Of a stretch of 64,000 nt of DNA, positions 29,999 through 56,940 are shown in pieces. The notes beneath the pieces are model-generated. The model ran no database searches and was not told where the DNA came from. It saw nothing but the letters and a program-made list of their open reading frames with translations. Made by a program: the position numbers and the translations under genes. Each line of letters opens with the position of its first letter. Position 1 is the stretch's first letter. Source of the stretch: a virus (Duplodnaviria > Caudoviricetes); the IMG/VR virus record IMGVR_UViG_3300014968_000012, positions 23,250 to 87,249 of that record, one strand, 5' to 3'.

Positions 29999-30125
29999 CC
30001 TTTCGACATTGCTTGGCGGCGTGGCGATTTGGTTTTGGTGTCAGGTGGGACGTAGGGGCGTCATATCCGCTGGGGCTCGTCCGGTGTCAGCCGGCTTGCC
30101 CGCCCGGTGTGGCGTCCCTCGTCGT

Positions 30126-30620
30126 CTATCCGGCGCGTTTCCGGCTGGGAAGCGTGCGGCGGGTGGGTTTCCCGTCGGGGTCCAGCACACCGATGCTCTT
30201 GCCCCAGTGGACCAGCGCGTCCGTCTCGCAGTACGCGCCGGCGTAGGACTTCCCGCCGCCGGGCTTCTCCTCCACGTTGTGCACGAGGCCGGCCGGGAAC
30301 TTCCCGGTGGACAGCCACGTACGTAGGCTCACGGCCGTGATGCCCAAGAGCTCGGGCACGTCGGCGTAGGCAGTGGTGGAGCTCGGCGGCCGCACCGGCG
30401 CGGGGAACCGGCCGGCGGCGAGCATGGTCGTGGCCAAGGGGACCTGTTCCGACGTGAGCGTGTAGCGCTCGCCGTTGTTCAGGTCCACCACCCATGAGGG
30501 CTTGGACTCCCGGGAGCCGGTCACGTACGTGAACCCCTGGATCAGGTGGTCGTCCATGGCGAATTGCAGCATGCTGCGTCGCTCTTCGATGAGCTCCCAC
30601 GGGTTGTGCGGACGTGCCAT
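30126..30620 (-). CDS. HTH (excisionase/MerR-like) protein
   Basis: YADVPELLGITAVSLRTWLSTGKFP. Confidence 0.65.
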   Translation of the reverse strand: MARPHNPWELIEERRSMLQFAMDDHLIQGFTYVTGSRESKPSWVVDLNNGERYTLTSEQVPLATTMLAAGRFPAPVRPPSSTTAYADVPELLGITAVSLRTWLSTGKFPAGLVHNVEEKPGGGKSYAGAYCETDALVHWGKSIGVLDPDGKPTRRTLPSRKRAG

Positions 30621-30708
30621 GCGGCCTCATTTCGGGGTCGGGGAAGACGATTAAATGTTACAGTCTGGCCCGCCACATAGCAACGTGGCGGGAGGGCTTG
30701 CGCGCTGG

Positions 30709-31116
30709 TCAGCGGCCGGCGGTGTGCGCGATCCGGGCGAGCTCGGCGCGGGCCCCGAAGTACTCGGCGGCGCGGGCCTCCCGCTCCTTGCGCTTGCTGA
30801 CGATCATCAGTTGGAGCGTGCTCAGGGCCTCGTCCTGGCGCGAGATCGGGTCGGAGTTGTTGCCGGCGTACTCCACGATCCAGCCCGAGAACGTGGACCC
30901 CTCGCGCTTGGTGAACTTGCGCACGGTGCCCGGGGCGTGCCATCCGCCGTCGCGGCCCGTGTAGTCCAGGTCAGCGTCCTGGATCCGGCCGTCCCGGTGG
31001 TCCAGCTCCACGAGCCACCACGCGCCGGCGGCCACCTTCACGAGGAACAACAGCGGCTCGTCTTCGACGGGCGTCGCGATGCGGCCGCACTTGGTGGTGA
31101 TCTTCTGAGTCTTCAC
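30709..31116 (-). CDS. Hypothetical protein (cassette gene)
   Basis: Directly downstream of a promoter-leader cassette. Confidence 0.7.
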   Translation of the reverse strand: MKTQKITTKCGRIATPVEDEPLLFLVKVAAGAWWLVELDHRDGRIQDADLDYTGRDGGWHAPGTVRKFTKREGSTFSGWIVEYAGNNSDPISRQDEALSTLQLMIVSKRKEREARAAEYFGARAELARIAHTAGR

Positions 31117-31123
31117 GGTGGTT

Positions 31124-31188
31124 CCCCTCGTTCGCTTGGCGGCGTGTTCGTCCTCTGACGATACAGTGTCGAGTTCGGCACTGTCAAC
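31124..31188 (-). promoter_or_regulatory. Conserved promoter-leader cassette
   Basis: TTGACA(31187-82)-N18-TATCGT, then CACGCCGCCAAGCGA and an RBS. Confidence 0.85.
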
Positions 31189-31385
31189 GCGAGTGATGGG
31201 GCGGCCGCCTGGAGGGGAGACGAGAAACGGGCCGTCCGGCGGCGGTGATCGCGGCGCCGGACGGCCCGTGCGCGGACGGCGCCGGCCGGGGGGGTGAGCC
31301 TGCGCGGTCCGAACTAGCAGGCGCGCCGCGCGACGGTGTTACGCGGTGTTGCGGGGAGAACACGCGGCGCGCCCTACTTACGAAG

Positions 31386-32039
31386 CTAGCGCGGCTCCCC
31401 GCCGACGGCCAGCACCCCGGCCGACCCGTCACTGAGCCGGGCCCGCTCGGCGTTGACGATCATCTCCAGGAACGAGCCCGGGCGCGCCCCGTCGGACACC
31501 AGCCACATGATGATCTGATCCCGCGCGACCTCGGGGCCCGGGAGCCCGCGCACGGCGGCGAGCGCGCACATGTAGCCGTACACGCCGGCTTCGGCCAGGG
31601 CCGCGCGCAGGCCGGCCCGCTGGTGCGGCGCCAGCGATTCCAGCGCGTCCGACTCGGCGCCGTCGGCGGCCTCGTCGGAGTGGGTCAGCAGACGTCGAAG
31701 CTCGGCGCGGGCCCGCGTCCACGCCTCGCCGTCCACCGGCCCGGGCTCGTCCAGCCACCGCGCGGCGGCCGCCGCGGCTTCGGCTTCCTCGGGCGTCGGG
31801 TGGGCGGCGACGTACGCCGCCACGGCGGCCCCGTGGGGCAGCGGCTCCCGGACGCCGTCCGAGCACGAGCACAATCCGAAGCGCCGGCGCGGCCCGCACG
31901 AGCCGTCGCCGCGGCGGTGGTAGCACTCCGAGTCGTCGGCGTGCACCTTGATGACGGTCCGCAGGTGGATGACGGGCAGGACCGGCGCGGCGCTCACCGC
32001 GTCGGCGTCGCCGCCGGGGGTCGTGATGCTCTCGGGCAT
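31386..32039 (-). CDS. Hypothetical protein
   Basis: RBS GAGAGGAACC; codon bias; C.H...C...CSC cluster. Confidence 0.65.
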   Translation of the reverse strand: MPESITTPGGDADAVSAAPVLPVIHLRTVIKVHADDSECYHRRGDGSCGPRRRFGLCSCSDGVREPLPHGAAVAAYVAAHPTPEEAEAAAAAARWLDEPGPVDGEAWTRARAELRRLLTHSDEAADGAESDALESLAPHQRAGLRAALAEAGVYGYMCALAAVRGLPGPEVARDQIIMWLVSDGARPGSFLEMIVNAERARLSDGSAGVLAVGGEPR

Positions 32040-32152
32040 CGTGGTTCCTCTCGATCGGTGGGGGCGTGGCGCCCCGGGGCTCAGGTAGAGAACGAGCGCG
32101 GCCGCCGACGCGTGGTGTGCGCCGGCGGCCGCGCTCGCGCAGGGGACGTGCG

Positions 32153-32482
32153 TCAGAACAGGTCGGCCAGCGGCGCCGGCCAGAGCCGGGCAAGCTGGAC
32201 GGCCGCCCAGTCCCGGGCCCGCTCGTCGGGCGCCGGCGCCGGGTCCCCGGGCGTCGCCGGCGCCGGGCGCCGGGTGGCGGACATGCCCCGGTCGTACAGG
32301 ACGGCCCGGACGTGTTCCTCCAGGGAACTGATCCGGGGCGTGGCCGGTCGGCCCCGCATCGGGTGGGCGGCCAACAGGACGCCGAGCTCGGGCCGGGTCA
32401 GGCGGAACGTCGTCGGGACGGATGCCCGCTCGGCGCCGTCGGTGTGCCCGACGGTCGTCCGGAACGTCATCGGCGCCGGCAC
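32153..32482 (-). CDS. Hypothetical protein
   Basis: Operonic with the upstream gene; start codon uncertain. Confidence 0.5.
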   Translation of the reverse strand: MPAPMTFRTTVGHTDGAERASVPTTFRLTRPELGVLLAAHPMRGRPATPRISSLEEHVRAVLYDRGMSATRRPAPATPGDPAPAPDERARDWAAVQLARLWPAPLADLF

Positions 32483-32483
32483 G

Positions 32484-33134
32484 TCAGCGGCCCGTCTCGC
32501 CGGCGCTCGGCGTGCCGAACGCGGCGTGCACGATCCGGCGCACGGCGGCCAGGCGCTCGTCCGCGCCGTCGGGGTACCGGTCGTGGTGGTCCTCGTGGTC
32601 TTGCCACCCGTACGCCGCCTGGACGCGGACCTCGTCCTGGGCCCGGTGCCGGATCACGTCCACGATGGCGTCCCGGTCCTTGGCGTTCCAGGGGAACACG
32701 GCGGCGGGGTTGTGGTCCGGGCTGAAGATGAGGCGGTACATCAGCCCCACGAGCTCGGATTCCGTGAGCTCCAGCGTCACCGGGATGCGCGGCGGGTTGG
32801 CGACGTAGTCCCGGGCCGGCCCGAGGTCCGGCGCCGGCACGATGCACGGGAACAGCGCCGTCCGGGGCTCCCCGGTCTTGCGGCGGCGCAGGCCGACCAG
32901 GGCGGCGCGCCGGTGCTCGGTCGTCTCGCCGTTCACCCACCGGACGCGGACGGTGTCGCCGTGGTCCTCCACGAGGCGGCCGGCCATGATCGGGTCCCGC
33001 CGGTCGGCGATGTCCTGGCGGTGGGCGACGATGGCGCCGGCCTGGAAGCGGAGCGCGTTCGTGAGCGCCAGGTACGCGGTGTACGAGTGGTCGCCGTCGG
33101 GGACCGGCGGCGTGGTCGGGTCTGTGCTGGTCAT
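32484..33134 (-). CDS. Hypothetical protein
   Basis: RBS AGGAAGGAAC; operator copy 5 immediately upstream. Confidence 0.7.
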   Translation of the reverse strand: MTSTDPTTPPVPDGDHSYTAYLALTNALRFQAGAIVAHRQDIADRRDPIMAGRLVEDHGDTVRVRWVNGETTEHRRAALVGLRRRKTGEPRTALFPCIVPAPDLGPARDYVANPPRIPVTLELTESELVGLMYRLIFSPDHNPAAVFPWNAKDRDAIVDVIRHRAQDEVRVQAAYGWQDHEDHHDRYPDGADERLAAVRRIVHAAFGTPSAGETGR

Positions 33135-33160
33135 GGTGGGTCTTGTTCCTTCCTGGTGAG

Positions 33161-33181
33161 GTGACAGGGCGGTCCTGTCAC
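33161..33181. promoter_or_regulatory. Palindromic operator-like site, copy 5
   Basis: GTGACAGG-gcggt-CCTGTCAC next to an RBS. Confidence 0.75.
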
Positions 33182-33238
33182 CGGTGGGACTGGCCGGCGG
33201 CGGCCGCGTTGTCAGCCGCGGCCGCCGCCGGCGGGCGG

Positions 33239-33679
33239 TCAGTGGTCGGTGTGGGCCGGCTCGGCGGCCGGCGGGGTGTCGGCGGCGGCCGCGCGGCGCT
33301 CGTCCCGCAGGGCGGCGCGGTAAGCCACCCATTCCTCGGGGCTCATGCCGGAGTTGCTGAACTCCCGGACGCTGTCCATCACGCGGCCCTTGAACCTGCG
33401 GACCGCCTCGCCGGCGTCGCGCGCCGGGACGTCGGCCGGGATCGGCTCGTACGTCAACAGGACGTCGGCCATCAGGTCCACGGCCGCCTCGTACGCCGCG
33501 CTCGCCGCGCCGTACGCCGGGCTCTGGCGCGGGTGGCCGCCGCGGGCCGCGATCTTGGCGCGCAGGTGCTCCATGTCGGCGAAGCGCGCGCCGCAGGCCT
33601 TGAACATCGCGGGCAACAGCGCGGCGGGCGGGAGCGCCGGCGGCGCCGGGTATGTGACCGCCCGGGGCTGGTTCGTCAT
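33239..33679 (-). CDS. Hypothetical protein
   Basis: RBS AGGAAGGAAC; operator copy 6 immediately upstream. Confidence 0.7.
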   Translation of the reverse strand: MTNQPRAVTYPAPPALPPAALLPAMFKACGARFADMEHLRAKIAARGGHPRQSPAYGAASAAYEAAVDLMADVLLTYEPIPADVPARDAGEAVRRFKGRVMDSVREFSNSGMSPEEWVAYRAALRDERRAAAADTPPAAEPAHTDH

Positions 33680-33702
33680 GGTGCTGGTTCCTTCCTGGTT
33701 CG

Positions 33703-33723
33703 GTGACAGGGCCGGCCTGTCAC
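33703..33723. promoter_or_regulatory. Palindromic operator-like site, copy 6
   Basis: GTGACAGG-gccgg-CCTGTCAC next to an RBS. Confidence 0.75.
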
Positions 33724-33792
33724 CCGTCGGGCTGGGCGGCGGCGCTCGGGCTCGGGGCCCGGGCGCCGCCGCCGGTGGGCGTAGCGGACCGG

Positions 33793-34485
33793 TTAGAACG
33801 GCGGCTCGTTGATCGCCTTGTGGCACCCGCAGTCGCAGGCGGGGTCGAAGACCGGGAGGAACCAGCGGTCCCGGACCCGGTCGTCCCCGTAGCCGCCGGC
33901 CTCCCACGGCGGGGTGTCGGTGCGGAACTCCACGCCGTAGCCGGTGACCCGGTCGTGGTCGTGCATGCCGTACGTCGCCGGCTCCACCGCGTACCGGCCG
34001 TACTCGTCGTCGCGCTCGGGGGTGTACGGGAGCGTCCACAGCGGGGCGCCGGTGGCGTTCGCCGCCTCCACCGCGGCGTCCCACGTCGCGCGGGCCGCGA
34101 CCTCGTACGCCTCGTACGTGCCGGGCAGCGACGCGAGCTCGTCCAGGGTGAACGTGCCGGGGCGCATCCACGTGGGGCGGTTCGGGTCGGGGGTGTAGGG
34201 CAGGGGCGGGAGCGCGGGGCGGGTCGCGGTGGTCATGGTGTCCTCGTCGGTCGTGGTGGTCGGGGTGTCGTTGCACTTGGTCCGCAGGGCCTTGAACGCG
34301 CCGGCCAGGGCGGTGAGGGTGACGAGCGCCGGGTGGCCGGCGGGGAGCTGGGCGCGCAGGGCGTCCATCTCGCCGGCGACGCGGGCGGCCTGAAACGCGG
34401 CGTTGGCCAGGACGTCGTCCAGGGCGGCGGCGAACGGGGCCGGCGTGGTGGCCGGCGCCGGGGCGGTGGCGATCAGGGTTCGCAT
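33793..34485 (-). CDS. Hypothetical protein (cassette gene)
   Basis: Downstream of a cassette; ends in CDCGC...EPPF. Confidence 0.7.
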   Translation of the reverse strand: MRTLIATAPAPATTPAPFAAALDDVLANAAFQAARVAGEMDALRAQLPAGHPALVTLTALAGAFKALRTKCNDTPTTTTDEDTMTTATRPALPPLPYTPDPNRPTWMRPGTFTLDELASLPGTYEAYEVAARATWDAAVEAANATGAPLWTLPYTPERDDEYGRYAVEPATYGMHDHDRVTGYGVEFRTDTPPWEAGGYGDDRVRDRWFLPVFDPACDCGCHKAINEPPF

Positions 34486-34493
34486 CGTTCGTT

Positions 34494-34563
34494 CCTTACT
34501 CGCTTGGCGGCGTGGTCTTCCTTGCACGAATTACGTTACAGTGCCGATTCCCACACTGTCAAC
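34494..34563 (-). promoter_or_regulatory. Conserved promoter-leader cassette
   Basis: TTGACA(34562-57)-N18-TAACGT; CACGCCGCCAAGCGAG. Confidence 0.88.
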
Positions 34564-34594
34564 ATCCAGTGTGGGGATCGGCGCCGGGGAGGGA

Positions 34595-34960
34595 TCAGAG
34601 CAGGCCCAGCGACCACAGCGCGCCGGAACGGATCCCGTACCGGTCGTCGTCGGTCAGGCCGGGCAGGGTGCTGAGGTGGAAGAGGATCACGAACTCCGCG
34701 GCCGCGCGGCGCTCGGCGCGGTCCGCGTCGGCGTAATCGGCGGCCAGGGACTCGGTCAGCGTGGCCACGAGGAACATTTCCGGGGTGACGACGCCGGCGA
34801 CGACGCGCGCGCAGGTCACGCAAAGCCGGTCCTTGGGCTCACTCGGCTGACCGTTCACGCCGGGCCGGGCCTCGTACCCCATGCCGCACTCGGCGCACAT
34901 CCCGCAGCGGACGTAGCCGCCGCGGGCCGGGGTCATGTTGGCGGCATTGATGGAAGGCAT
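34595..34960 (-). CDS. Hypothetical zinc-finger protein (cassette gene)
   Basis: CAEC...CVTC; downstream of a cassette. Confidence 0.7.
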   Translation of the reverse strand: MPSINAANMTPARGGYVRCGMCAECGMGYEARPGVNGQPSEPKDRLCVTCARVVAGVVTPEMFLVATLTESLAADYADADRAERRAAAEFVILFHLSTLPGLTDDDRYGIRSGALWSLGLL

Positions 34961-34964
34961 TTCG

Positions 34965-35037
34965 GGTCCTTACTCGCTTGGCGGCGTGGTCTTCCTTGCG
35001 AGAACTACGTTACAGTGTCGCGCCCCGCACTGTCAAC
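34965..35037 (-). promoter_or_regulatory. Conserved promoter-leader cassette
   Basis: TTGACA(35036-31)-N18-TAACGT; CACGCCGCCAAGCGAG. Confidence 0.88.
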
Positions 35038-35065
35038 ACAGTGCGGGGCGCGACGGGCGGGGCGG

Positions 35066-35398
35066 CTAGCGGACCAGGGCGGCCAGGCCGGCGGCGTCGG
35101 CCAGGCGCTCGGGCGTGCGCGCGGTCACCGTCTCGGGGACCAGGCGGATGTCCGCGTTCAGGCCGACGTTCAGCATCCGGAAGTCGGCCGGGTCGCCGGC
35201 GTACGCCGAGACGATCAGGGCGCACGCGGTGTCCGACGGGACGGCCGGCGCCTTGACGTTCTGGACCTCGTACCAGCCGCCGGAGGACAGGCGGACCAGG
35301 CGCCCGACGAGCTCCAGGCGCAGGGTCGCCAGGTCACGGCCGGCGCAGGTGTAAGCCTCGTACGCCTTGTCCAGGTTGGCGGCGGCGAACTTGTTCAT
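35066..35398 (-). CDS. Hypothetical protein (cassette gene)
   Basis: Downstream of a cassette. Confidence 0.7.
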   Translation of the reverse strand: MNKFAAANLDKAYEAYTCAGRDLATLRLELVGRLVRLSSGGWYEVQNVKAPAVPSDTACALIVSAYAGDPADFRMLNVGLNADIRLVPETVTARTPERLADAAGLAALVR

Positions 35399-35401
35399 CG
35401 T

Positions 35402-35471
35402 GGTCCCTCTCGCTTGGCGGCGTGTTTCCTTACGAGAGAAACGTTACAGTGCCGCACCCCACACTGTCAAC
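35402..35471 (-). promoter_or_regulatory. Conserved promoter-leader cassette
   Basis: TTGACA(35470-65)-N18-TAACGT; CACGCCGCCAAGCGAGAGGGACC. Confidence 0.9.
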
Positions 35472-35509
35472 GTGTGCGAGGTGCGGCACTGTTACCGCAG
35501 GTCAGGACC

Positions 35510-36252: not shown

Positions 36253-36552
36253 CTACAGCGCGGCGGCCAGGGCGTCGCGCTCGGCGTCGCCGGCGGCGCG
36301 CATGATCGTGGCCTCCAGCGACGCGATGGCGGCCAGGACGTCGCGGTGGACGCCGCCGAACTCGGCGTCGGTGAGCGTGTCCCACGCGGCGCGGCGCTGG
36401 GCGATCACGGCGGCGTGCTCCACCGCGTCGGGCGAGGCGCCGGCGAGGCGGGCCCGGCCCTGGGCGGTGGTGTACGCGTTGCCGGCGGCGCGGGTCGCCT
36501 CTTCCATCACGGCCACGTAGGACTCGCGCTGGTGGCTGGGGTCGGTGCTCAT
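36253..36552 (-). CDS. Hypothetical protein (cassette gene)
   Basis: Downstream of a cassette. Confidence 0.7.
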   Translation of the reverse strand: MSTDPSHQRESYVAVMEEATRAAGNAYTTAQGRARLAGASPDAVEHAAVIAQRRAAWDTLTDAEFGGVHRDVLAAIASLEATIMRAAGDAERDALAAAL

Positions 36553-36560
36553 GGGGCGGT

Positions 36561-36623
36561 GGTTCCTTTCGCTTGGCGGCGTTGCGATGGCAACGTTACG
36601 GTGTCGGATGCGGAACTGTCAAC
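36561..36623 (-). promoter_or_regulatory. Conserved promoter-leader cassette (leftward member of a divergent pair)
   Basis: TTGACA(36622-17)-N18-TAACGT; CGCCGCCAAGCGAAAGGAACC. Confidence 0.85.
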
Positions 36624-36698
36624 ACCGAAGTGACCGGCCGCGACGCCTCATCAAAGACGTGTAGTGCGGTGGCGTGCGCGGCCGCCACTCCCCATCAT

Positions 36699-36729
36699 GT
36701 TGACAGTGTCGCGCTCGGCAACGTATCGT
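36699..36729 (+). promoter_or_regulatory. Cassette-type promoter lacking the conserved leader (rightward member of the divergent pair)
   Basis: TTGACA(36700-05)-N18-TATCGT(36724-29). Confidence 0.75.
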
Positions 36730-36771
36730 CTGGCGCGTCAGAGCTCCACCCGCCCGACGGAAGGAACCGCG

Positions 36772-37437
36772 GTGAACGCCACGCAGACCAAGCGGCGCCC
36801 CTGGCCGCGCGTGTGGGTCGTCCTGCCCGACGGCCACGTGGTCCAGCACGCGACGAACCGCGCGCCGGCCGTCGCCGTCGTGGTGCCGACCGGCCGGCCG
36901 GACCGCCCGTGGGCCGTCGTGTCGTACGTGAAGTCCGAGCGGACCGCCCGGTGGGTGGTCCGGACGCGCGGCCTGGTCGGCGACGTCCGGACGCTGCCCG
37001 TGTACGACAACGAGGCCGCCCGGGACGCCGCGCTGGAGGCCCTGCGCACGCAGGACGAGCGCGACCGGACGGCGCGCGCGGCGGCTCGGCGGGCCGGCAA
37101 GAACGCCACCGACTCGCACGCCCCCGGCGCCGGCCGCGACGCCACGGACGAGGAATGGGAAGCGCTCGCCGTCCCGGCGCCGGTCAAGCTGGACCGGGCC
37201 GTCATGGTGCTGACCCTGCTCAAGAACGGGCGCGGCGTGATCGAAGGACCCGGGTTCACCGCCACGTTCCACGGCCACCGGGGCATGTTCTACGCCACGC
37301 AGACCACCGCCGGCCCGAAGCCGGTTGTCGCCGCCGCGCGCAACCGGGACGAGGCGGTCCGGGACCTGGCGGTGGCGCTGGGCGTGGTCGCGGACCGGTA
37401 CGTGGTTCAGGTGGAGATGACGCGCGACGGCCGCTGA
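36772..37437 (+). CDS. Hypothetical protein
   Basis: GTG after the RBS GGAAGGAA. Confidence 0.7.
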   Translation: MNATQTKRRPWPRVWVVLPDGHVVQHATNRAPAVAVVVPTGRPDRPWAVVSYVKSERTARWVVRTRGLVGDVRTLPVYDNEAARDAALEALRTQDERDRTARAAARRAGKNATDSHAPGAGRDATDEEWEALAVPAPVKLDRAVMVLTLLKNGRGVIEGPGFTATFHGHRGMFYATQTTAGPKPVVAAARNRDEAVRDLAVALGVVADRYVVQVEMTRDGR

Positions 37438-37468
37438 CCTGCGGCGTTACAGTGCCGCGCTCCACAGT

Positions 37469-37536
37469 GTTGACAATGTGGGGAGCGACACTGTAACGTC
37501 TCTCTCGTAAGAACACGCCGCCAAGCGAGAGGGACC
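37469..37536 (+). promoter_or_regulatory. Conserved promoter-leader cassette
   Basis: TTGACA(37470-75)-N18-TAACGT; CACGCCGCCAAGCGAGAGGGACC. Confidence 0.9.
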
Positions 37537-37539
37537 GAC

Positions 37540-38058
37540 ATGAACACCACGACCACCGCCACCGCCCCCGCCTTCCGTCTCGACCGGAACTCGGAAACGG
37601 CCGTCATCCTCCAGAACGCCGGCTTTGAGGACGCGGCGGTCATCATGCGCGACGGCATCAAGGACGGCGGCCAGCGCGTCGGCGTGGTCTACTTCGACGC
37701 CGAGCGGCTGGAGTACGTCGCGTACGTGGACGGCGAGCGCGACGCGTTCACCTCGGGTGAGCGCTTCGACGCCGCCGCCAAGCTCGTGGAGTCCCTGCCC
37801 GCGCCCGTCGTGCCGGAGTGGACCACGATGCCGGCGCAGGACATGAAGCCGGGTTACCGCTACTGGAGCGTGCGCCCGGGCTATGAGTCCAATTGGACGA
37901 TCAAGTCCGTAGAGATCAGCGAGGCGTCGTACCAGGTGGACCGCGGGAACGGCTGGTTCACCCCCGTGCTGGTCACCGTGACCCGCCGCGACGGCGTGGC
38001 CCAGACCCACGAGTACGGCGACGAGGTGGCGATACAGGGCCCTTGGAAGACTGTCTGA
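37540..38058 (+). CDS. Hypothetical protein (cassette gene)
   Basis: Downstream of a cassette. Confidence 0.75.
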   Translation: MNTTTTATAPAFRLDRNSETAVILQNAGFEDAAVIMRDGIKDGGQRVGVVYFDAERLEYVAYVDGERDAFTSGERFDAAAKLVESLPAPVVPEWTTMPAQDMKPGYRYWSVRPGYESNWTIKSVEISEASYQVDRGNGWFTPVLVTVTRRDGVAQTHEYGDEVAIQGPWKTV

Positions 38059-38092
38059 CCGCGCCCAGCCCGCGCCGTGTCGGCCCCCACAC

Positions 38093-38160
38093 TTGACAGT
38101 GTGGGGGCCGACACTGTAACGTCTTCCATGTCAGCAAGCCACGCCGCCGCCAGTGAGGAA
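38093..38160 (+). promoter_or_regulatory. Conserved promoter-leader cassette (diverged leader)
   Basis: TTGACA(38093-98)-N18-TAACGT; CACGCCGCCgccagtGAGGAACC. Confidence 0.85.
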
Positions 38161-38166
38161 CCCGAG

Positions 38167-39147
38167 ATGACCCGCCAGAAGACCCCGTCCGTGTCGGCGC
38201 TCGCCGTGCTCGCCGTCCTGTCGTACAACCCCGACGAGGCGGTGTTCGTCAGCACCATGACCCACGAGTGGCCGACGCGCCCGGCCAGCATCGCCCAAGC
38301 GCTGAACCGCCTCGTCCGACAGGGCCACGTCGTGCGCGCCGAGCGCCACGGGATCCCGTACTACCACCTCGCCGAGTCGGCCCGCGCGCTCACCGGCGCG
38401 CCGGCGCCCGTCGCCGCCGAGTCGGCCCCGGAGACCACCGCCATGGCGCCGGCTCCCCTCACCGCCGACGAGGTCCGCGCACTGAAGCTCACCGCGACCA
38501 TGGAGCGGTCCTTGAGGAACCTCGTCGCCGGCCCGGTCGGATACTGGGGCAACGCGCTGAGCTCCCGGAAGGTCCACGGAAAGGCGGCTGAGGGTCTGGT
38601 GGCGCGCGGCCTGGCCCTGTTCGACCGGGAAGAGCTGTGCACGCCTCAGGGGTGCGTGTGCAAGGGGCACAGCATGGACCAGACCCGGCGTAGCCCCCAC
38701 TACCGGATTTCCGAGCTCGGGAAGCGTGTCGTCGCGGCCCTGGAGACGCCGGCCGAGTCCGCCGGCGAGCTCGCCGACGCGCCGGCGCCCGTGGCCGCCG
38801 AGCCGGCCGCCGGGACCACCGCCGCGGCGCCGGCGGTCACCGCCGACGAGGTGGCGGCGCTCAAGCTGAGCACGACCATGGCCCGGTCCCTGGTGAACCT
38901 CGTCCCCGGGCCGGTCGGTTACTGGGGATACGCCCTGAGCGCCCGGAAGGTCCACGGCGGCGCGGTGGAAGGGCTCGTCCGGCGCGGCCTGGCCGTCAAC
39001 GAGGTGAGCCCGTGCACGGCCGACGGGTGGTGCGTGTGCGCCGGCGTCTACGGCGACCGGTCCCGGCCGGCCTACCACTACCGGGCGACCGAGCTCGGGG
39101 AGCGCGTCGCCGTCGCGCTGGTGGCCGTGGCGGCGCTGGCGGCGTGA
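38167..39147 (+). CDS. Protein with three winged-helix-like modules (the last two are an internal duplication)
   Basis: Two ~110 aa repeats TADEV.ALKL..TM.RSL.NLV.GPVGYWG.ALS.RKVHG.A.EGLV.RGLA...C...CVC...YR..ELG.RV. Confidence 0.8.
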   Translation: MTRQKTPSVSALAVLAVLSYNPDEAVFVSTMTHEWPTRPASIAQALNRLVRQGHVVRAERHGIPYYHLAESARALTGAPAPVAAESAPETTAMAPAPLTADEVRALKLTATMERSLRNLVAGPVGYWGNALSSRKVHGKAAEGLVARGLALFDREELCTPQGCVCKGHSMDQTRRSPHYRISELGKRVVAALETPAESAGELADAPAPVAAEPAAGTTAAAPAVTADEVAALKLSTTMARSLVNLVPGPVGYWGYALSARKVHGGAVEGLVRRGLAVNEVSPCTADGWCVCAGVYGDRSRPAYHYRATELGERVAVALVAVAALAA

Positions 39148-39196
39148 GGCCGGCGGGGCGGCGCCGGCCGTGGAGCCGGCGCCGCACCCGCAAGTG

Positions 39197-39263
39197 TTGA
39201 CAGTGTCGCTACCGACACTGTAACGTTTCTCTCGTAAGGACACGCCGCCAAGCGAGAGGGACC
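39197..39263 (+). promoter_or_regulatory. Conserved promoter-leader cassette
   Basis: TTGACA(39197-202)-N18-TAACGT; CACGCCGCCAAGCGAGAGGGACC. Confidence 0.9.
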
Positions 39264-39268
39264 CGACC

Positions 39269-39652
39269 ATGACCGCCACCACCACCACCGTCCGAATCAA
39301 GGGCCGCGCGCGCTGGGCCGCCAAGGGCACGACGACGGACATCACCACGTGCGAGTTCTGCGGTCGGGAGAAGCTTCGCAAGACCGTGATCCTGGTCCCG
39401 CTGGACGAGGACGGGAACCCCGACGGCGAGGTGACGCACGCCGGGACCTCGTGCGCGGCCGTCCACCTGGCCGTCTCCACGTCCGCCGTGACCACGGCCG
39501 CCCGGGTCGCCAACCACCGGCGCGCGCAGGCCGTGACCGAGTACGCCGAGCTCGGCAAGAGCATGGAGGCCGCCGCCGAGCGGAACGACATGCGGACGTG
39601 GCACGTCCTGGCCGTCGCCCGCGGCCAGGTCTGGGGCCTGGCGTACAACTAG
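39269..39652 (+). CDS. Hypothetical zinc-binding protein (cassette gene)
   Basis: TTCEFCGR..L.KTV.L...DGEV...GTSCA motif, common in phages. Confidence 0.75.
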   Translation: MTATTTTVRIKGRARWAAKGTTTDITTCEFCGREKLRKTVILVPLDEDGNPDGEVTHAGTSCAAVHLAVSTSAVTTAARVANHRRAQAVTEYAELGKSMEAAAERNDMRTWHVLAVARGQVWGLAYN

Positions 39653-39681
39653 GGGCCGGCGCGCGCGAGCACCCGCCGGGA

Positions 39682-39725
39682 AGAGCCCGGCGCCGACGGA
39701 ATGCGGCCGTCCGGCGCCGGGCTTT
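39682..39725 (+). terminator. Terminator hairpin; 44 bp identical to 40153-40196
   Basis: agagcccggcgcc...ggcgccgggcttt. Confidence 0.75.
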
Positions 39726-39739
39726 TCCACGTCCAGCAT

Positions 39740-39810
39740 GTTGACAGTGCGGGATACGACACTGTAACGTAGTTCATGCAAGGGAACACGCCGCCAAGCG
39801 AGAGGGACCC
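39740..39810 (+). promoter_or_regulatory. Conserved promoter-leader cassette
   Basis: TTGACA(39741-46)-N18-TAACGT; CACGCCGCCAAGCGAGAGGGACC. Confidence 0.9.
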
Positions 39811-39814
39811 GACC

Positions 39815-40108
39815 ATGACCGCCAAGACCACCGCGCAGGCAATCAGCGCCGTCCGTTCCAACTACGCCGCCTTGCGGCGCCTGGCCACCTCCGGCGGCCG
39901 CACCGCCGCCACCACGAACGCGATAGGTCGCCGCCGGATGGCCATTGAGGCGGCCGTCAAGAGCCTTCCGCGCGACCTGGCCGGGGACCTGGCCTTCGAA
40001 AACACCCTTATCGAGAACATCGCCGCGTCGCGCCGCAACGGTGTTGAGCGACCCGAACTCGCCGGCCGCCTGGCCGCTTGCCGGCGCCGGGTCCGCGCCA
40101 GCGCCTAA
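39815..40108 (+). CDS. Hypothetical protein (cassette gene)
   Basis: Downstream of a cassette. Confidence 0.7.
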   Translation: MTAKTTAQAISAVRSNYAALRRLATSGGRTAATTNAIGRRRMAIEAAVKSLPRDLAGDLAFENTLIENIAASRRNGVERPELAGRLAACRRRVRASA

Positions 40109-40152
40109 AGCCCCCTCCCGGCGCCCCGCCAGCGCGCCGAGCCCCGCCGGGG

Positions 40153-40196
40153 AGAGCCCGGCGCCGACGGAATGCGGCCGTCCGGCGCCGGGCTTT
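40153..40196 (+). terminator. Terminator hairpin; 44 bp identical to 39682-39725
   Basis: Same sequence as the copy 471 bp upstream. Confidence 0.75.
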
Positions 40197-40210
40197 CTCA
40201 CGCCCCGTAT

Positions 40211-40281
40211 GTTGACAGTGTGGGGAGCGACACTGTAACGTAGTCCGTGCAAGCAAGCCACGCCGCCAAGCGAGAGGGACC
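40211..40281 (+). promoter_or_regulatory. Conserved promoter-leader cassette
   Basis: TTGACA(40212-17)-N18-TAACGT; CACGCCGCCAAGCGAGAGGGACC. Confidence 0.9.
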
Positions 40282-40285
40282 CCCG

Positions 40286-40726
40286 ATGAAGGTCGAACAC
40301 ATCCGCCAGGACACGGCGCCCGTCGCTCTCGGGCTCCAGGTCATCCACGTGGACAACCTGGACGCCCCGTGCCTCGTGGACGCCGGCGTGGTCGTCGGCA
40401 TCACCGGCGACCGGGCGGACGTCTACTGGGCCGACACGATGATCAGCAACCACCCCGTCGCGCACCTCGCGACGATCCGGCGGGCCGACTCGACCGAGCG
40501 CCCGGCGGTCCGCGCCCTCGTCCCCCGCGTCGCCGACGCGTACGACGAGGTCACCGCCCGCAAGGTCACCGCGATGATCGCCGACAACTGCGCGGCGATG
40601 GCCAAGCGCCGGCCCGGCACCCGCCCGGAGCAGTGGCGCCGGCCGGTGACGCGGTTCGTGATGGACACCCTGCGCGCGCAGAACCCGCGCATGTACGCCG
40701 CCGCCGCCCGCGTCCTGGGCGCCTGA
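40286..40726 (+). CDS. Hypothetical protein (cassette gene; SH3-like N-terminus)
   Basis: Downstream of a cassette; G.VVGITGD.ADVYW. Confidence 0.7.
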   Translation: MKVEHIRQDTAPVALGLQVIHVDNLDAPCLVDAGVVVGITGDRADVYWADTMISNHPVAHLATIRRADSTERPAVRALVPRVADAYDEVTARKVTAMIADNCAAMAKRRPGTRPEQWRRPVTRFVMDTLRAQNPRMYAAAARVLGA

Positions 40727-52389: not shown

Positions 52390-52728
52390 ATGGGAAACCT
52401 CATGAATGCCGACGACGCCCCGACGTCGCGCATGGACGGCGCCGGCTTCGTCGCCGTCCCGCTGTGGGTGCTGCGCTCGGGGATCTCAAGCCACGCGTTC
52501 AAGCTGTACGCGCACATCGCGGCCATGACGCCGCCGGTGCCGCCTATCCCGGGCGTGATGGTGCTCCAATCCGATCTCGCGACCTTCCTCGGACTGGCCA
52601 ACGGGGTGGCGGCCCGGCGGTACGTGGACGAGCTCGTGGCCGCCGGCATGCTCGTTGTGGAAGAGGTCCGCACCCACGACGGCATGCGGCGCCGGAACCG
52701 CTACAGCGTGGTGCGGGACAAGCCGTGA
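52390..52728 (+). CDS. wHTH protein, paralog of the Rep N-terminal domain
   Basis: FVAVPLWVL..GIS..AFKLYA...LA..LGL......RYVDELVAAG......RNRY. Confidence 0.75.
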   Translation: MGNLMNADDAPTSRMDGAGFVAVPLWVLRSGISSHAFKLYAHIAAMTPPVPPIPGVMVLQSDLATFLGLANGVAARRYVDELVAAGMLVVEEVRTHDGMRRRNRYSVVRDKP

Positions 52729-53093
52729 CCGACCACCACGAGACGACCCCGGAGGACGTCGCCGAGATGCAGCGCTGGCCCGCCGGCCGCAAGCTACTGG
52801 CGGCCCGTGACGCGCTGATCCACACGCACGCCATCGCGCCGGAAGACGTCCGGCTCACCCACGTTCCTGCGGCGCCGCCGGCATCCATCACGGCGAGCGC
52901 CGTCGGTATCAGCGTGCGCCGAGACGGCGTGTGGTGCTCCCTGGAGTGGGACCAGGCGGCTTTCGTCTGGAACCTTCGTCGCGGGACGCTGGACGTCGGC
53001 CGGGTCCCCGCTTCGACGCCGTTCCTGTTCGGCGACAGTGACGCCGACCTCGTCTATGGCGGCAAGGTGGCATCACTTCTGGCCGGGGGGTGA
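52725..53093 (+). CDS. Hypothetical protein
   Basis: GTGA overlap. Confidence 0.65.
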   Translation: MTDHHETTPEDVAEMQRWPAGRKLLAARDALIHTHAIAPEDVRLTHVPAAPPASITASAVGISVRRDGVWCSLEWDQAAFVWNLRRGTLDVGRVPASTPFLFGDSDADLVYGGKVASLLAGG

Positions 53094-53100
53094 CCGCGCG

Positions 53101-53436
53101 ATGACCGACGCCGACACGGCCCCCGCGCTGGCCGCCGAGCCCGAGCCGGTGGCCATGGCGATGCGAAGCGGCATCGTGCACAACGTGCGCGAGCGCGACG
53201 GCCTCATGTTCCACGTCTTCCGTCCGGATCCCTCCACCATGGCGGCGTGCTCGGGGTGGCTTCTGGACGATCTCTTCGTTCTGCCTCCCGACGAGGTCCC
53301 GTACTCGCGCCGGTGCCAGCGGCCGGCGTGCCGGTCGAAGTGGGAAGCCGCGCTGAAGCCGCCAGCGGGGAACGGGGGCGGGCCGGCGGCGGCCTCGAAC
53401 CTTTCCGGCGCGGTGTGCGGACCGCTCGAACCCTGA
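53101..53436 (+). CDS. Hypothetical Zn-binding protein
   Basis: H...ACSG...RCQRPAC. Confidence 0.6.
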   Translation: MTDADTAPALAAEPEPVAMAMRSGIVHNVRERDGLMFHVFRPDPSTMAACSGWLLDDLFVLPPDEVPYSRRCQRPACRSKWEAALKPPAGNGGGPAAASNLSGAVCGPLEP

Positions 53437-53502
53437 GGCGGCCGCCGCCTTTGGGTCACCCGACGGCCACTCTACCCACGGCGCCCCCGGGCCGCCCCGC
53501 CA

Positions 53503-53565
53503 TTGACAGTGTCGAAACCGGCACAGTAACGTTTTCGGCGAAAGCACGCCGCCAAGCGAGAGGAC
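53503..53565 (+). promoter_or_regulatory. Conserved promoter-leader cassette
   Basis: TTGACA(53503-08)-N18-TAACGT; CACGCCGCCAAGCGAGAGGACC. Confidence 0.88.
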
Positions 53566-53575
53566 CACACGCACG

Positions 53576-53884
53576 ATGACCGACGCCAAGACCACCGCCC
53601 CCGAGCCGCCGGCCGCCGACGAGAACCGCCGCGTCCTGGTCATCACGGGCCCGGACGGCGAGGGGACGCAGTACCAGGACGCGACACAGATCAGCTTCAG
53701 CACGGCCGGCGACGGCCGCGCCGTCATGGCGATCTCGTTCGGCCGGCCCGACGTCGGCGTGGACATGCACCTGGTGGTGGCACTGACGCAAGAGACGCTG
53801 GACGCCGTCCTGACCGACGGCCGCGAGTACCACGACCGTGCGAACGGCCGCGGCCGCTGGAAGGGGATCAACCCCGAGCGGTAG
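53576..53884 (+). CDS. Hypothetical protein (cassette gene)
   Basis: Downstream of a cassette. Confidence 0.7.
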   Translation: MTDAKTTAPEPPAADENRRVLVITGPDGEGTQYQDATQISFSTAGDGRAVMAISFGRPDVGVDMHLVVALTQETLDAVLTDGREYHDRANGRGRWKGINPER

Positions 53885-53955
53885 CCGTACGCTGGGCACA
53901 GGACGGACCACGTTCTTGCCCAGTGCGACCACACGAAGGCTTGGAGTGAAGTCCA

Positions 53956-54078
53956 GGAAGCCCCCCGGCGTGGAAACCGGGGGGCTTCCGCCGTTCCCGG
54001 GCCCGAGCGCCGGCGCGCGCCGGCCAGCGCCGGACAGAGAGAAGCCCCCCTGGTCTCCCACGAACCAGGGGGGCTTCT
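53956..54078. terminator. Two tandem GAAGCCCCCC...GGGGGGCTTC hairpins between convergent units
   Basis: ggaagccccccgg/ccggggggcttcc and gaagcccccctgg/ccagggggcttc. Confidence 0.65.
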
Positions 54079-54146
54079 GTGCAGACGAACAGCGCCCGGA
54101 CGAAGCGCTGGTCTGGACCGGATCGTAACGGCCGCGCGCGCCGGGA

Positions 54147-54494
54147 TCAGGGATGCTCGTCGGGTTCGTCATCCTGTGGTGGTACCGATTCAGCCCCGTG
54201 ATGTCCCTCGCGCACGTGCGCGTGGAGCTCGGCGGCTATCGTCTTGAGCCGCTTCCGGATATCGATTTGGTCGGCGCCCTGCGCGGTCAGGATGGCCAGG
54301 ATCGCGGTCACGTCGTCGCGCAGGGACCGGGACCCGTTCTGGGCCGGCCCGGGCGTGAGCTCGTCCACCCCGACCTGTGTCACGTTCTCCAGGCGCCGGA
54401 TGTGCCGCTTGATCCACCGGCACACCACGGCGCTGAGGAAACCGGCGATCCCGCACAGCGACGCCGCGGTGGAAATCCACTGTGTCAGGTCCAC
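54147..54494 (-). CDS. Single-TM membrane protein (holin-associated / DUF2746-like)
   Basis: N-terminal TM helix followed by EL.P...NGS.SLRD.V coiled coil. Confidence 0.55.
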   Translation of the reverse strand: MDLTQWISTAASLCGIAGFLSAVVCRWIKRHIRRLENVTQVGVDELTPGPAQNGSRSLRDDVTAILAILTAQGADQIDIRKRLKTIAAELHAHVREGHHGAESVPPQDDEPDEHP

Positions 54495-54709
54495 CAGATC
54501 ACCCCGTCCGCCGGCGGTAGGCCGCCCGGGCGCGCCGGAGTCGCCAGACAGAGCGACGCGCCCGGACGTGGCGCCATGCTCGCACATCCGGGCGCCCCGC
54601 GATCATGAGGCGCGCTGGCGCCCGAGCGTACGGGATCTGACGAAACCCCGTAGCGGCCAGCGGGGGCCGGCTGTACCGTGGCCGAACCGCCGCGCTCCGG
54701 TATGAAAAA

Positions 54710-55600
54710 CGCCAACATCCATTGGAAGGGATGGGGCCGATCCTCGGGGCGCGGCGCTTTCGACGCCGGCCACGCCCGAGCTGGGCGCCCGGCGCGCCGG
54801 CGGGGAGGTAGCGCCGGGGGGGTGCGCGCGCCTGGTCTGCGAGCGCGCCCCCGAGCCCCGGGTACAAGGCGCGGCGGTGTCCGCGCCCAACCCTCACGTG
54901 AGCGCGGACACCGCCGCCGCGGCGCTCACCGCCCCCCGGGGCGCCGCAGGGGCGCCCCGCCGGATCCGGTCACGGCCGGGCGCCCTGGTCCTGTTGGCAC
55001 GCACGCCCGGCGTCCGGCTGATGCGGGAGCCGATTACCGACGTCGGGACGTGCGTGCGGTGAGCGATCCCCACATCACCGCGGGCGGCCACTCGCGGAAC
55101 AGGCTATGTCGCACAAGTGACGCGTGTCCGGCGATTGGGATAATTCGTTCCCTGATTCACGGTCGCGGCCCGCCTTCCCTCCAGGGAAAAGACGGGCCGC
55201 GCGCGGGGGTGGGGAAGCGTCGGGAGCAGTTGACGCGTACACCCGGCATCCGAAACGAAAGGGAGGTTCCCGTCCGTCCTTGGCCGTGGCCGCCGCCCGA
55301 CGCCGTCACCCTCACGACACGCCCCACACAACGGTCGGGGTCGTTGCGACACACGGCGCGTTCCTTGCAGGGAAGTTACGCAGGGTGCTGCGGGGGAGTG
55401 TCGTCCGGCTATCGTCGGGCGGCGGCCACCGGGAGACAGACTAGGGCGCCCCGGCCGAGCGTGTCAGGGGAATGCGACAATCCGCGTTCGTTTGTTCACG
55501 GAAAGTCACGTCACCGTCGGCGACGTGCGCCGGAACCCTATTCCCCTGTGTATGCGCGCTCTTGCATGCGCGACACAGTGTCAGCGTTCTGCGACCTAGC
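54710..55600 (+). ncRNA. Candidate large structured non-coding RNA (~0.9 kb)
   Basis: No credible ORF; perfect 16-bp and 17-bp stems, a ~20-bp long-range stem 54973-54995/55435-55457 and many nested hairpins; G-U pairs favour the + strand; boundaries approximate. Confidence 0.55.
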
Positions 55601-55620
55601 GCAACGTGGCGCGGTACGCC

Positions 55621-55649
55621 GAAGCCCCCGGCGCGTGGCCGGGGGCTTC
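55621..55649. terminator. Bidirectional hairpin
   Basis: gaagcccccgg-cgcgtgg-ccgggggcttc. Confidence 0.7.
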
Positions 55650-55672
55650 GGCGGAACGGTGGCGCCGGTGGG

Positions 55673-56068
55673 TCAGCGGACGTAGTGCGCGCGGCCGTAG
55701 GTCTTGCGGTGGACCATCACGACCGGCCGGCGGGCGGCGCGCTTGGCGGCCTGCGCGGCGCGGTACGCCTTGCTCTCCTCCACGCTGTCCTCTTCCCGGT
55801 CCATCCACGTGGCGCGCGGCGAGGGGTGCTCCAGGCGGGCCCGGGCCTGCGCGAAGCGGCGCACGGCGGCCACCTCGTCGCGCGTCGGGTTCGCGATGTG
55901 GTCCAGCTCCATGGACATCCAGAACGCCACGGCGTCGGCGCGGCGGTGGCCCAGCTCCACGTCCTCGGGCGTGGCCGACACGACCGGGAACCAGTCGGGC
56001 AGGGTGTCCACGATCGCGTCCACGCCGAGCTCGGCGGCGCGGTCCTGGGCGGTGGCGGTGATGGTCAT
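55673..56068 (-). CDS. Hypothetical protein (cassette gene)
   Basis: Downstream of a cassette. Confidence 0.7.
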   Translation of the reverse strand: MTITATAQDRAAELGVDAIVDTLPDWFPVVSATPEDVELGHRRADAVAFWMSMELDHIANPTRDEVAAVRRFAQARARLEHPSPRATWMDREEDSVEESKAYRAAQAAKRAARRPVVMVHRKTYGRAHYVR

Positions 56069-56075
56069 CGGTGTG

Positions 56076-56144
56076 TCCTCTTCGCTTGGCGGCGTGTTCT
56101 TCTGACAAGAGAAACGTTACAGTGTCGCGTCCCACACTGTCAAC
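56076..56144 (-). promoter_or_regulatory. Conserved promoter-leader cassette
   Basis: TTGACA(56143-38)-N18-TAACGT; CACGCCGCCAAGCGAAGAGGAC. Confidence 0.88.
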
Positions 56145-56184
56145 GGGCGGGGCACGGGCATCCCGCGCCCCCCGCTGGTGCGGA

Positions 56185-56868
56185 TCAGGCGGCCAGCGCC
56201 AGGGCGGCCCGGGCCGGGGCGTAGCGCTCGCGAGCGGACTCGGCGAGGTGGTACAGCGGCGTCCCGTCGAAGTCGGCCGACTCGATCACGTCGCCAGCGG
56301 CGACCATCCGGCGCAGGGTCGCGGCCAGGGTGGACGCCCGGAAACCGGTGTGCTCGGGGTGGACCGTCGTCGCCTGGATCGGGTTGTACGACAGGGTCGC
56401 GGCGATGGCCAGGGCGGACGCCGACGGCTTGCGCGTCCGGGTCTTCGTGGTCTTCGCCGGCGCGGCCGCCGGGGCGGACTCGGCGGCCGGGGCCGGCTCG
56501 GCGACGCCCAGCACGGCGCGGCCGGCTTCGGTCAGGACCGCCACGACGTCGCACCGCTTGGCCATCCGGCCGGCGTAGTCCGCCATCATCGGGACGTCCG
56601 GGAACAGGTCCACCGTGTAGAAGTCGCCGCGGCGCTCCACCGCGACCAGGCCCCCGCCCACCAGGTCCACGATCTCGTCCGTGACCAGCGTTTCCCAGTT
56701 GCGGTCCCCCCGGTACATGGCGCCGATCTGGCAACCCTCGATCGCGGCCACCTTGTGCTCGTGGCGCGGGCCGTACTGAGTCGAGAACATCCCCGAGACG
56801 TGACCGGCGTGGACGGTGGCCAGAAGCTCGCGCATCACGGGGCCTATCCGCAGGGTCTTGGCGCTCAT
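56185..56868 (-). CDS. Two-domain cassette protein with a C-terminal wHTH shared with 38167-39147
   Basis: PSASALAIAATLSYNP...YHLAESAR. Confidence 0.75.
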   Translation of the reverse strand: MSAKTLRIGPVMRELLATVHAGHVSGMFSTQYGPRHEHKVAAIEGCQIGAMYRGDRNWETLVTDEIVDLVGGGLVAVERRGDFYTVDLFPDVPMMADYAGRMAKRCDVVAVLTEAGRAVLGVAEPAPAAESAPAAAPAKTTKTRTRKPSASALAIAATLSYNPIQATTVHPEHTGFRASTLAATLRRMVAAGDVIESADFDGTPLYHLAESARERYAPARAALALAA

Positions 56869-56871
56869 CGG

Positions 56872-56940
56872 GGTGTCCTCTCGCTTGGCGGCTTGTCCTT
56901 ACGAGAGAAACGTTACAGTGTCGGACCCGACATTGTCAAC
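56872..56940 (-). promoter_or_regulatory. Conserved promoter-leader cassette
   Basis: TTGACA(56939-34)-N18-TAACGT; GCCGCCAAGCGAGAGGAC. Confidence 0.88.

Follow-up and report, generated by a model that had tools for sequence, protein, structure and literature searches.

Promoter-early stem-loops (PeSLs) of the T4-type phages RB49/phi1, PST/T4 and nt-1/KVP40 combine a sigma70-consensus early promoter with a stem-loop that lies between the promoter boxes, overlaps the −35/−10 boxes or stands upstream, and they carry a Shine-Dalgarno (SD) site and a start codon at their 3′ end (Arbiol et al. 2010, PMC2839356; Comeau et al. 2014, PMC4122927). They precede ORFans in plastic regions and bound insertions and deletions (indels) between near-identical phages (PMC2839356, PMC4122927). 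In Cluster K mycobacteriophages, start-associated sequences (SAS) as well as extended start-associated sequences (ESAS) were described in 2011 (PMC3203893), and their function is still unverified (PMC12699233). Cluster O mycobacteriophages carry eight to nine strongly predicted SigA-type promoters, a divergent pair among them, in their non-structural arms, and they also have a repeated 17-bp dyad motif that lies mostly away from the promoters and is uninvolved in indels (PMC4351075). Here, we analysed a 64,000-nt stretch of an uncultured soil phage (the window; bases 23250-87249 of the 87,249-bp IMG/VR record IMGVR_UViG_3300014968_000012, judged 99% complete), in which 14 promoter-bearing repeats precede genes mostly of unassigned function. 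With a probability of about 0.65, we read these repeats as PeSL-type composite terminator-promoter-leader modules in an actinophage, which would insulate transcription units and serve as recombination joints.

The promoter motif TTGACA-N18-TA(A/T)CGT occurs 14 times in the window and in none of 100 shuffles. The −35 box is a perfect TTGACA in 14/14 copies, the spacer is invariably 18 nt long, and T1, A2 and T6 of the −10 box are kept, with the −10 variant TATCGT in two copies (31158, minus strand; 36700, plus strand). When the whole 87,249-bp genome was scanned with a weight matrix, the 14 sites scored 40-54 bits and the runner-up, which is the mirror arm of one hairpin, 25 bits; no extra diverged promoter copies emerged, and both the structural genes and the record's first 23 kb were free of copies. 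Likewise, the 11-kb operon 42430-53436 holds no copy of the motif. All 14 promoters are intergenic and each points at a gene, seven leftward and seven rightward, with 40-47 nt between −10 box and start codon in every case. They are confined to two non-structural arms, 31158-40241 and 53503-56939, the first of which is organised about the divergent promoter pair 36593/36700. The motif corresponds to a near-consensus promoter of the primary sigma factor; its activity and the early expression timing of the modules are predicted from sequence alone. It is improbable that a phage-encoded or phage-modified polymerase or sigma factor reads these promoters, which would make them a middle or late class and not host-driven early ones. 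Their highly uniform sequence beyond both hexamers does resemble that of phage-specific promoters, but the invariant TTGACA, the 18-nt spacing and a −10 box fitting TAnnnT form the primary-sigma pattern, no RNA polymerase or sigma family was matched in the ~60 proteins scanned, and the structural genes lack these sites. The 14 modules and the units that they precede are, in window coordinates:

31114..31187, minus strand: module P31158, with promoter 31158-31187 (TATCGT −10 box), an 8-bp spacer hairpin, leader box 31132-31146 and GTG 31116; unit of 30709-31116, 30126-30620, a box-only site, the RecT-like gene 28415-29986 and probably 27758-28258.
34483..34586, minus strand: module P34533, with an 18-bp hairpin 34539-34586 (−35 box in the loop), promoter 34533-34562, leader box 34500-34514 and ATG 34485; unit of five genes, 33793-34485 through 31386-32039.
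34958..35054, minus strand: module P35007, with a perfect 17-bp hairpin 35017-35054 (TTGA in the loop), promoter 35007-35036, leader box 34974-34988 and ATG 34960; unit of one gene, 34595-34960.
35396..35492, minus strand: module P35441, with a 19-bp hairpin 35446-35492 around the −35 box, promoter 35441-35470, leader box 35410-35424 and ATG 35398; unit of one gene, 35066-35398.
36550..36622, minus strand: module P36593, leftward half of the divergent pair, with variant promoter 36593-36622, leader box 36569-36583 and ATG 36552; unit of genes 36253-36552 and 35510-36169.
36700..36774, plus strand: module P36700, rightward half of the divergent pair, with promoter 36700-36729 (TATCGT) and GTG 36772; unit of one gene, 36772-37437.
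37446..37542, plus strand: module P37470, with a 21-bp imperfect hairpin 37446-37497 around the −35 box, promoter 37470-37499, leader box 37514-37528 and ATG 37540; unit of one gene, 37540-38058 (172 aa), replaced in a relative (contig L131, below).
38077..38169, plus strand: module P38093, with a perfect 17-bp hairpin 38077-38114 (TTGA in the loop), promoter 38093-38122, a degenerate leader box and ATG 38167; unit of one gene, 38167-39147.
39153..39271, plus strand: module P39197, with a separate hairpin 39153-39191 (16 bp, −38 kcal/mol), promoter 39197-39226 with a 9-bp spacer hairpin, leader box 39241-39255 and ATG 39269; unit of one gene, 39269-39652.
39661..39817, plus strand: module P39741, with hairpin 39677-39731 (TTTT tail), promoter 39741-39770, leader box 39787-39801 and ATG 39815; unit of one gene, 39815-40108.
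40132..40288, plus strand: module P40212, with hairpin 40146-40203, promoter 40212-40241, leader box 40259-40273 and ATG 40286; unit of three genes to 41839, followed by a hairpin and an ORF-poor stretch.
53437..53578, plus strand: module P53503, with upstream hairpin 53437-53501, promoter 53503-53532, leader box 53545-53559 and ATG 53576; unit with gene 53576-53884.
56066..56171, minus strand: module P56114, with upstream hairpin 56149-56171, promoter 56114-56143, leader box 56082-56096 and ATG 56068; unit with gene 55673-56068, then a 1.1-kb stretch without coding signal.
56866..56988, minus strand: module P56910, with a terminator-like hairpin 56955-56988 (TTTCTTC tail), promoter 56910-56939, leader box 56881-56895 (one mismatch) and ATG 56868; unit with gene 56185-56868.

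Twelve promoters follow a gene of the same direction, and folding of the 45-70 nt upstream of each promoter revealed a strong hairpin that precedes or overlaps 11 of these twelve; the two divergent promoters, which have no upstream gene, showed no terminator-like hairpin. In five to six copies, at P34533, P35007, P35441, P37470 and P38093, the hairpin is embedded in the promoter: the upstream sequence mirrors the promoter's own spacer, which forms the 3′ arm of a 17-21-bp stem (−30 to −38 kcal/mol) looped around TTGA(CA); two of these stems are perfect. At P39197, P39741, P40212, P53503, P56114 and P56910 the hairpins are separate (−21 to −45 kcal/mol) and lie 3-20 nt upstream of the promoter; three of these six have T-rich tails. 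In addition, all 14 copies contain a hairpin within the spacer, with stems of 8-9 bp at P39197 and P53503 and of 12-13 pairs with internal loops, reaching into the −35/−10 boxes, at P39741, P40212, P56114 and P56910. When each upstream arm was paired in silico with all 16 spacer alleles, its own spacer was the best or second-best partner at 34533, 35007, 35441, 38093 and the L131 allele of P37470, with pairing energies of −33 to −43 kcal/mol compared to means of −20 to −29 kcal/mol with other spacers. Because the arms differ between copies yet stay complementary within each copy, it is, judging from these comparisons, the hairpin pairing rather than the arm sequence that is under selection. 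A supposed recombination scar with mismatched arms at P37470 was dropped, as the full fold still gave a good 21-bp hairpin.

The promoter spacers also contain a dyad, ACAGTG-N10-CACTGT, which in a genome search occurred solely inside these promoters. Its outer half-sites are kept in sequence in 12-13 of the 14 copies, and the 3′ half of the spacer, CGRCACTGT, is kept in 14/14 whatever its pairing partner and even where it is unpaired within the spacer. It is therefore possible, though we hold it for the less probable case, that the extended dyad GTTgACAGTG-N10-CACTGTAAC, spanning the −35/−10 region, is mainly the site of a dimeric phage regulator acting as an early shut-off or autoregulatory repressor, so that the repeats would be kept for co-regulation and recombination would be incidental. 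Candidate regulators would be the proteins of 38167-39147 and 56185-56868, which have in common a 75-aa, winged-helix-like domain; the N-terminus of the former gave the one weak Pfam hit among the cassette proteins (MarR_2 winged-helix, E = 1e-4). This hit is, however, below the Pfam threshold, no PDB relative was found, and the fold model is unusable (pLDDT 46). Furthermore, inner stem positions vary and co-vary with the partner arm, which argues for selection on pairing and not on a protein contact surface, and the genome has no free-standing operator copy. A lysogeny repressor in particular is unlikely, as no integrase is encoded. Regulator binding would be compatible with the composite-module reading as an extra layer. 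Elsewhere in the window, 44021-44040 is a perfect 20-bp palindrome, ACAGTACCGTACGGTACTGT, present as a single copy, whose ends ACAGT/ACTGT resemble the half-sites of the promoter dyad.

Downstream of the promoters, a leader box, ACGCCGCCAAGCGA, was found within one mismatch at 12/14 promoters. The exact box CACGCCGCCAAGCGA has nine copies in the window, and a further four, including a promoter-less one, have one mismatch; P36700 is without a leader box and the box of P38093 is degenerate. SD-like GGGA/AGGA sequences lie 6-12 nt ahead of the start codons. A conserved RNA fold of the leader was rejected, with an RNAalifold energy of −1 kcal/mol, three invariant pairs, zero covariation and weak single folds, and Rfam gave no match. 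The leader is a linear box plus SD site without conserved structure. Two further features belong to this part of the array:

30009-30023, minus strand: box-only site with one mismatch and no promoter; an SD-like AAAGGA comes next, ahead of the RecT-like gene's start codon.
28415-29986, minus strand: gene for a RecT-family single-strand annealing protein of 523 aa.

Because the box-only copy precedes the RecT-like gene within an operon, the leader box probably acts after transcription initiation, in translation. The RecT-like protein itself is unusually long, with a low-complexity, Ala/Pro/Thr-rich N-terminal extension of ~140 aa and a zinc-ribbon-like CxxC...CxxC tail at its C-terminus; the single full-length homologue found, encoded on a 6.7-kb JGI contig, is 69% identical, and other matches cover the RecT core only.

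An earlier sequence-only reading of this DNA had described about 14 promoter-leader cassettes, each driving one or two short genes. Its motif count is reproduced here and its coordinates agree with ours within 1 nt, as do the two TATCGT copies, the promoter-only copy at 36700 and the leader copy consisting of the box only. The anatomy of promoter and leader was correctly drawn as well, while the hairpins upstream of or overlapping the promoters, and with them the terminator half of the module, had been missed. The number of genes per cassette holds in part: nine promoters are followed by one gene and P36593 by two, whereas P40212 is followed by three, P31158 by at least four (including the RecT-like gene) and P34533 by five.

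In order to compare the array with relatives, JGI metagenome contigs were scanned by pattern, which yielded two contigs from the same sample, L131 (1,907 bp) and L132 (2,564 bp), with ~97% identity overall to the phage; further matches (L128-L130, L133) were chance. On its left flank, L131 differs from the window at five positions in the 480 nt that end at the stop codon of 36772-37437, and on its right flank at ~8 positions in the 800 nt that begin with the first codons of 38167-39147. Between them lies the replaced block:

37442..38190, plus strand: block replaced in L131, comprising P37470, the 172-aa gene, P38093 and the first codons of the next gene, between flanks that are ~99% identical.

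In this block, L131 has an unrelated 136-aa ORFan where the phage has the 172-aa gene, together with diverged alleles of both the P37470 and P38093 modules, in which the hairpin arms are again complementary. A k-mer assembly chimera is unlikely to account for L131, because the longest identical runs at the junctions are below 21 nt and divergence rises gradually. Signs of exchange are also present within the phage itself. A 122-nt direct repeat of terminator and promoter (39661-39782 / 40132-40253, 86% identical) flanks the single gene 39815-40108. In addition, the modules are mosaic: within a given module, the nearest neighbour among the modules differs between upstream arm, promoter and leader. 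The L131 allele of P38093 contains a 30-mer identical to P35007 on the opposite arm.

The sequence-only reading had proposed that single genes are swapped as cassettes, and had named a fixed gene order without cassette-bounded indels in relatives, together with motifs inactive as transcription starts, as the finding that would speak against it. L131 shows a cassette-bounded replacement instead, so that swapping is seen in one module-bounded case in this ~99%-identical relative, with L132 collinear. Its image of an integron without an integrase survives as a metaphor only: no integrase or resolvase is encoded, and homologous recombination is the likelier mechanism. Searches for tyrosine and serine recombinases (PF00589, PF00239), with positive controls, were negative for the whole 87-kb record. 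We consider it very improbable that the repeats serve a dedicated system of site-specific recombination or transposition, as integron-like attC sites, MITEs or homing elements would. Palindromic repeats do bound the cassettes and one cassette lies between direct repeats, but no tyrosine or serine recombinase is encoded, target-site duplications are absent, the junctions of the swap are graded and not precise, and every copy is oriented to a gene with promoter geometry.

Taken together, we propose that each module would be built from (i) a G+C-rich hairpin that either immediately precedes the promoter or overlaps it, with the −35 box then in the loop, and that would end the preceding unit as a predicted terminator or insulator; (ii) a primary-sigma promoter (TTGACA, 18 nt, TAACGT) that would be usable by host RNA polymerase without phage factors; and (iii) a fixed 40-47-nt leader with the box and the SD site. 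The modules would partition both non-structural arms into insulated units, each with one to five genes. Because ~80-120 nt of similar sequence recurs 14 times, they would also be preferred joints for homologous recombination, probably through the phage RecT-like annealing protein, and whole cassettes could be replaced, lost or gained with their expression signals intact. Lambda Red proteins recombine diverged sequences efficiently (PMC2327257), and by analogy the RecT-like protein is the phage's own candidate catalyst for recombining short diverged modules.

Several points weigh against this reading of the modules as terminators and joints. The conservation of CGRCACTGT suggests that the spacer is recognised by a protein in addition. 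Of the 9 nt that follow the embedded hairpins, no more than 2-4 are U, and recombinant mycobacterial RNA polymerase fails to terminate in vitro at hairpins without a U-tract (PMC3993855). Because the embedded hairpins are U-poor and the mycobacterial polymerase needs a U-tract in vitro, the putative terminator may be an attenuator, a 3′-end stabiliser, a processing site or a DNA cruciform. Exchange, moreover, was seen once only, on a 1.9-kb metagenome contig, and L132 is collinear with the phage across P34533, P35007, P35441 and P36593. Finally, the swap in L131 also replaced both flanking modules, with breakpoints at the modules' outer edges, namely a stop codon on the left and the ribosome-binding site and first codons on the right. 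Ordinary recombination in flanking genes with a third phage, with the modules playing no causal part, could look alike.

A more elaborate version, which we regard as rather unlikely, would make the embedded palindromes switches at each joint and the array, with the RecT-like protein and the leader box, a self-contained system of cassette expression and exchange, possibly via excised mini-circles. The RNA hairpin of an incoming transcript, or extrusion of a DNA cruciform, could decide whether the next promoter fires, by which neighbouring cassettes would be coupled or early expression would sense supercoiling. The leader box could in turn be the target of one global post-transcriptional regulator.

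The genes that the modules precede are mostly without assigned function. The sequence-only reading had taken them for immediate-early genes of host takeover or anti-defence; both this timing and these functions would be putative. None of 20 cassette proteins matched PHROG, no sequence relative was found in the PDB, and an Atlas search and single-sequence folding (pLDDT 46) were uninformative on function. Genes 40286-40726 and 40796-41290 are paralogues. The 326-aa protein has two matches among 5.8 billion proteins, and the L131-specific ORF matches itself alone in the same set; both are near-ORFans. For the 172-aa protein (37540-38058), a full-length homologue with 87% identity was found. Its C-terminal 80 aa correspond to a small domain present in 25 clusters of 77-281-aa proteins with no function assigned, and a 1,674-aa protein built from immunoglobulin I-set repeats contains this domain 11 times; the domain may thus be Ig-like, though Pfam gave no match on the phage protein. 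Gene 38167-39147 (plus strand) contains an internal tandem duplication with a period of ~380 nt (38437-38616 / 38815-38994, 76% identical).

Two stretches next to the units are poor in coding signal. The P40212 unit ends in a hairpin at ~41870-41905 followed by ~550 nt without coding periodicity, and the whole ORF-poor gap of ~600 nt between this unit and the 42430-53436 operon (41840-42430) contains two strong G+C-rich hairpins, the one just given and another at 42289-42318 with a T-run (minus strand). The predicted promoter of the large operon must lie in this gap and is not of the repeated type. In the second stretch, 54500-55650 (~1.1 kb), no frame shows third-position G+C periodicity. It lies immediately downstream of the P56114 unit on the minus strand and had no match in Rfam; P56114 may drive a long non-coding transcript across it.

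The phage has a G+C content of ~72% and encodes a MuF-like head protein, a tape-measure protein, fn3 and lectin-like tail proteins, and a major capsid protein ~35% identical to proteins of Gordonia, Mycobacterium and Microbacterium phages; no tRNA genes were found. It is a tailed, siphovirus-like actinophage and probably not integrative, because it encodes no tyrosine or serine integrase. No close relatives were found in IMG/VR by DNA pattern scans or protein and alignment queries, and megablast against INPHARED and PLSDB gave no match to the phage. The 118 leader-box matches in IMG/VR were single chance occurrences in G+C-rich contigs, and four matches from a scan of GTDB genomes were all chance, in unrelated phyla. 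Outside the array, 12482-13651 (minus strand) is a lone minus-strand gene within the plus-strand structural module; its 389-aa product, with a weakly matched N-terminal Xre-type helix-turn-helix (HTH_3/HTH_31), is the only Xre-like protein found in the genome. Pfam further gave a weak Phd/YefM antitoxin-like N-terminus in 44129-44500 (E = 2e-4), a clear DUF6283 in 51352-51816 (E = 8e-33) and a weak SAV2148-like HEPN in 62904-63803 (minus strand; E = 5e-3).

The array offers one answer to how accessory genes of actinophages turn over at gene boundaries, and it marks ~24 genes, mostly unannotated, as candidate early host-interaction genes. It would also supply compact predicted parts for Streptomyces and mycobacterial genetics, namely a 30-nt consensus promoter, hairpin insulators and a fixed leader.

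Among known systems, the integron is set apart by its tyrosine-recombinase integrase, of which there is none beside the array or in the 87-kb record. For the Streptomyces phage phiC31, Ingham and colleagues reportedly described, in 1994-1995, a number of early promoters similar to one another, along with terminators whose hairpins lack a poly-U tail; these promoters are said not to be sigma70-consensus and to be controlled via conserved inverted repeats bound by a repressor. Both phages are high-GC actinophages whose early region, predicted as such in the present case, would be split into short transcripts by repeated promoters and U-less hairpins, and they differ in promoter class and repressor control. 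With Cluster O, the present phage shares an actinophage background, multiple SigA-type promoters in the non-structural arms, a divergent pair and a dyad repeat, whereas here the dyad lies solely inside the promoters and the swap is bounded by modules. SAS and ESAS are likewise asymmetric boxes in one orientation just upstream of non-structural gene starts of varied families in actinophages, and ESAS resemble the modules in that an inverted repeat with variable spacer precedes the box in a subset. However, the SAS consensus GGGATAGGAGCCC (13 bp, up to two mismatches, 3-7 nt from starts) had no match in the window; SAS include the SD site and lie 3-7 nt from the start, while the box here stands upstream of a separate SD site, and the inverted repeat is embedded in a canonical −35/−10 promoter, which is not described for ESAS.

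The closest likeness is to PeSLs, an analogy already drawn by the sequence-only reading and well matched by host-type promoter, stem-loop, SD site with start codon, and location in non-structural arms. As in PeSLs, a sigma70-type promoter with a stem-loop is followed by SD site and start codon ahead of ORFans in plastic non-structural regions, differences between close relatives are bounded by the elements (here one replacement, 37442-38190 in L131), and direct repeats flank single genes, a substrate for mini-circle excision. Unlike PeSLs, the modules occur in an unrelated phage lineage and have unrelated sequence (siphovirus-like actinophage, 72% G+C), the spacer has a fixed length of 18 nt and holds a dyad conserved in sequence, hairpins of 17-21 bp hold the −35 box in the loop between co-varying arms, and a conserved 14-15-nt leader box is added; there are 14 copies compared to ~50, with module activity here predicted. 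Because the sequence upstream of the −35 box is a G+C-rich hairpin and not the AT-rich tract of PeSLs, the array would, on its sequence features, be a variant of the PeSL type rather than a member in the strict T4 sense. PeSL-type mobile regulatory cassettes have previously been described in T4-type phages of Gram-negative hosts, and the present array suggests that a high-GC actinophage came independently to this solution, in which the expression signals of orphan genes are portable and at the same time act as their recombination joints.

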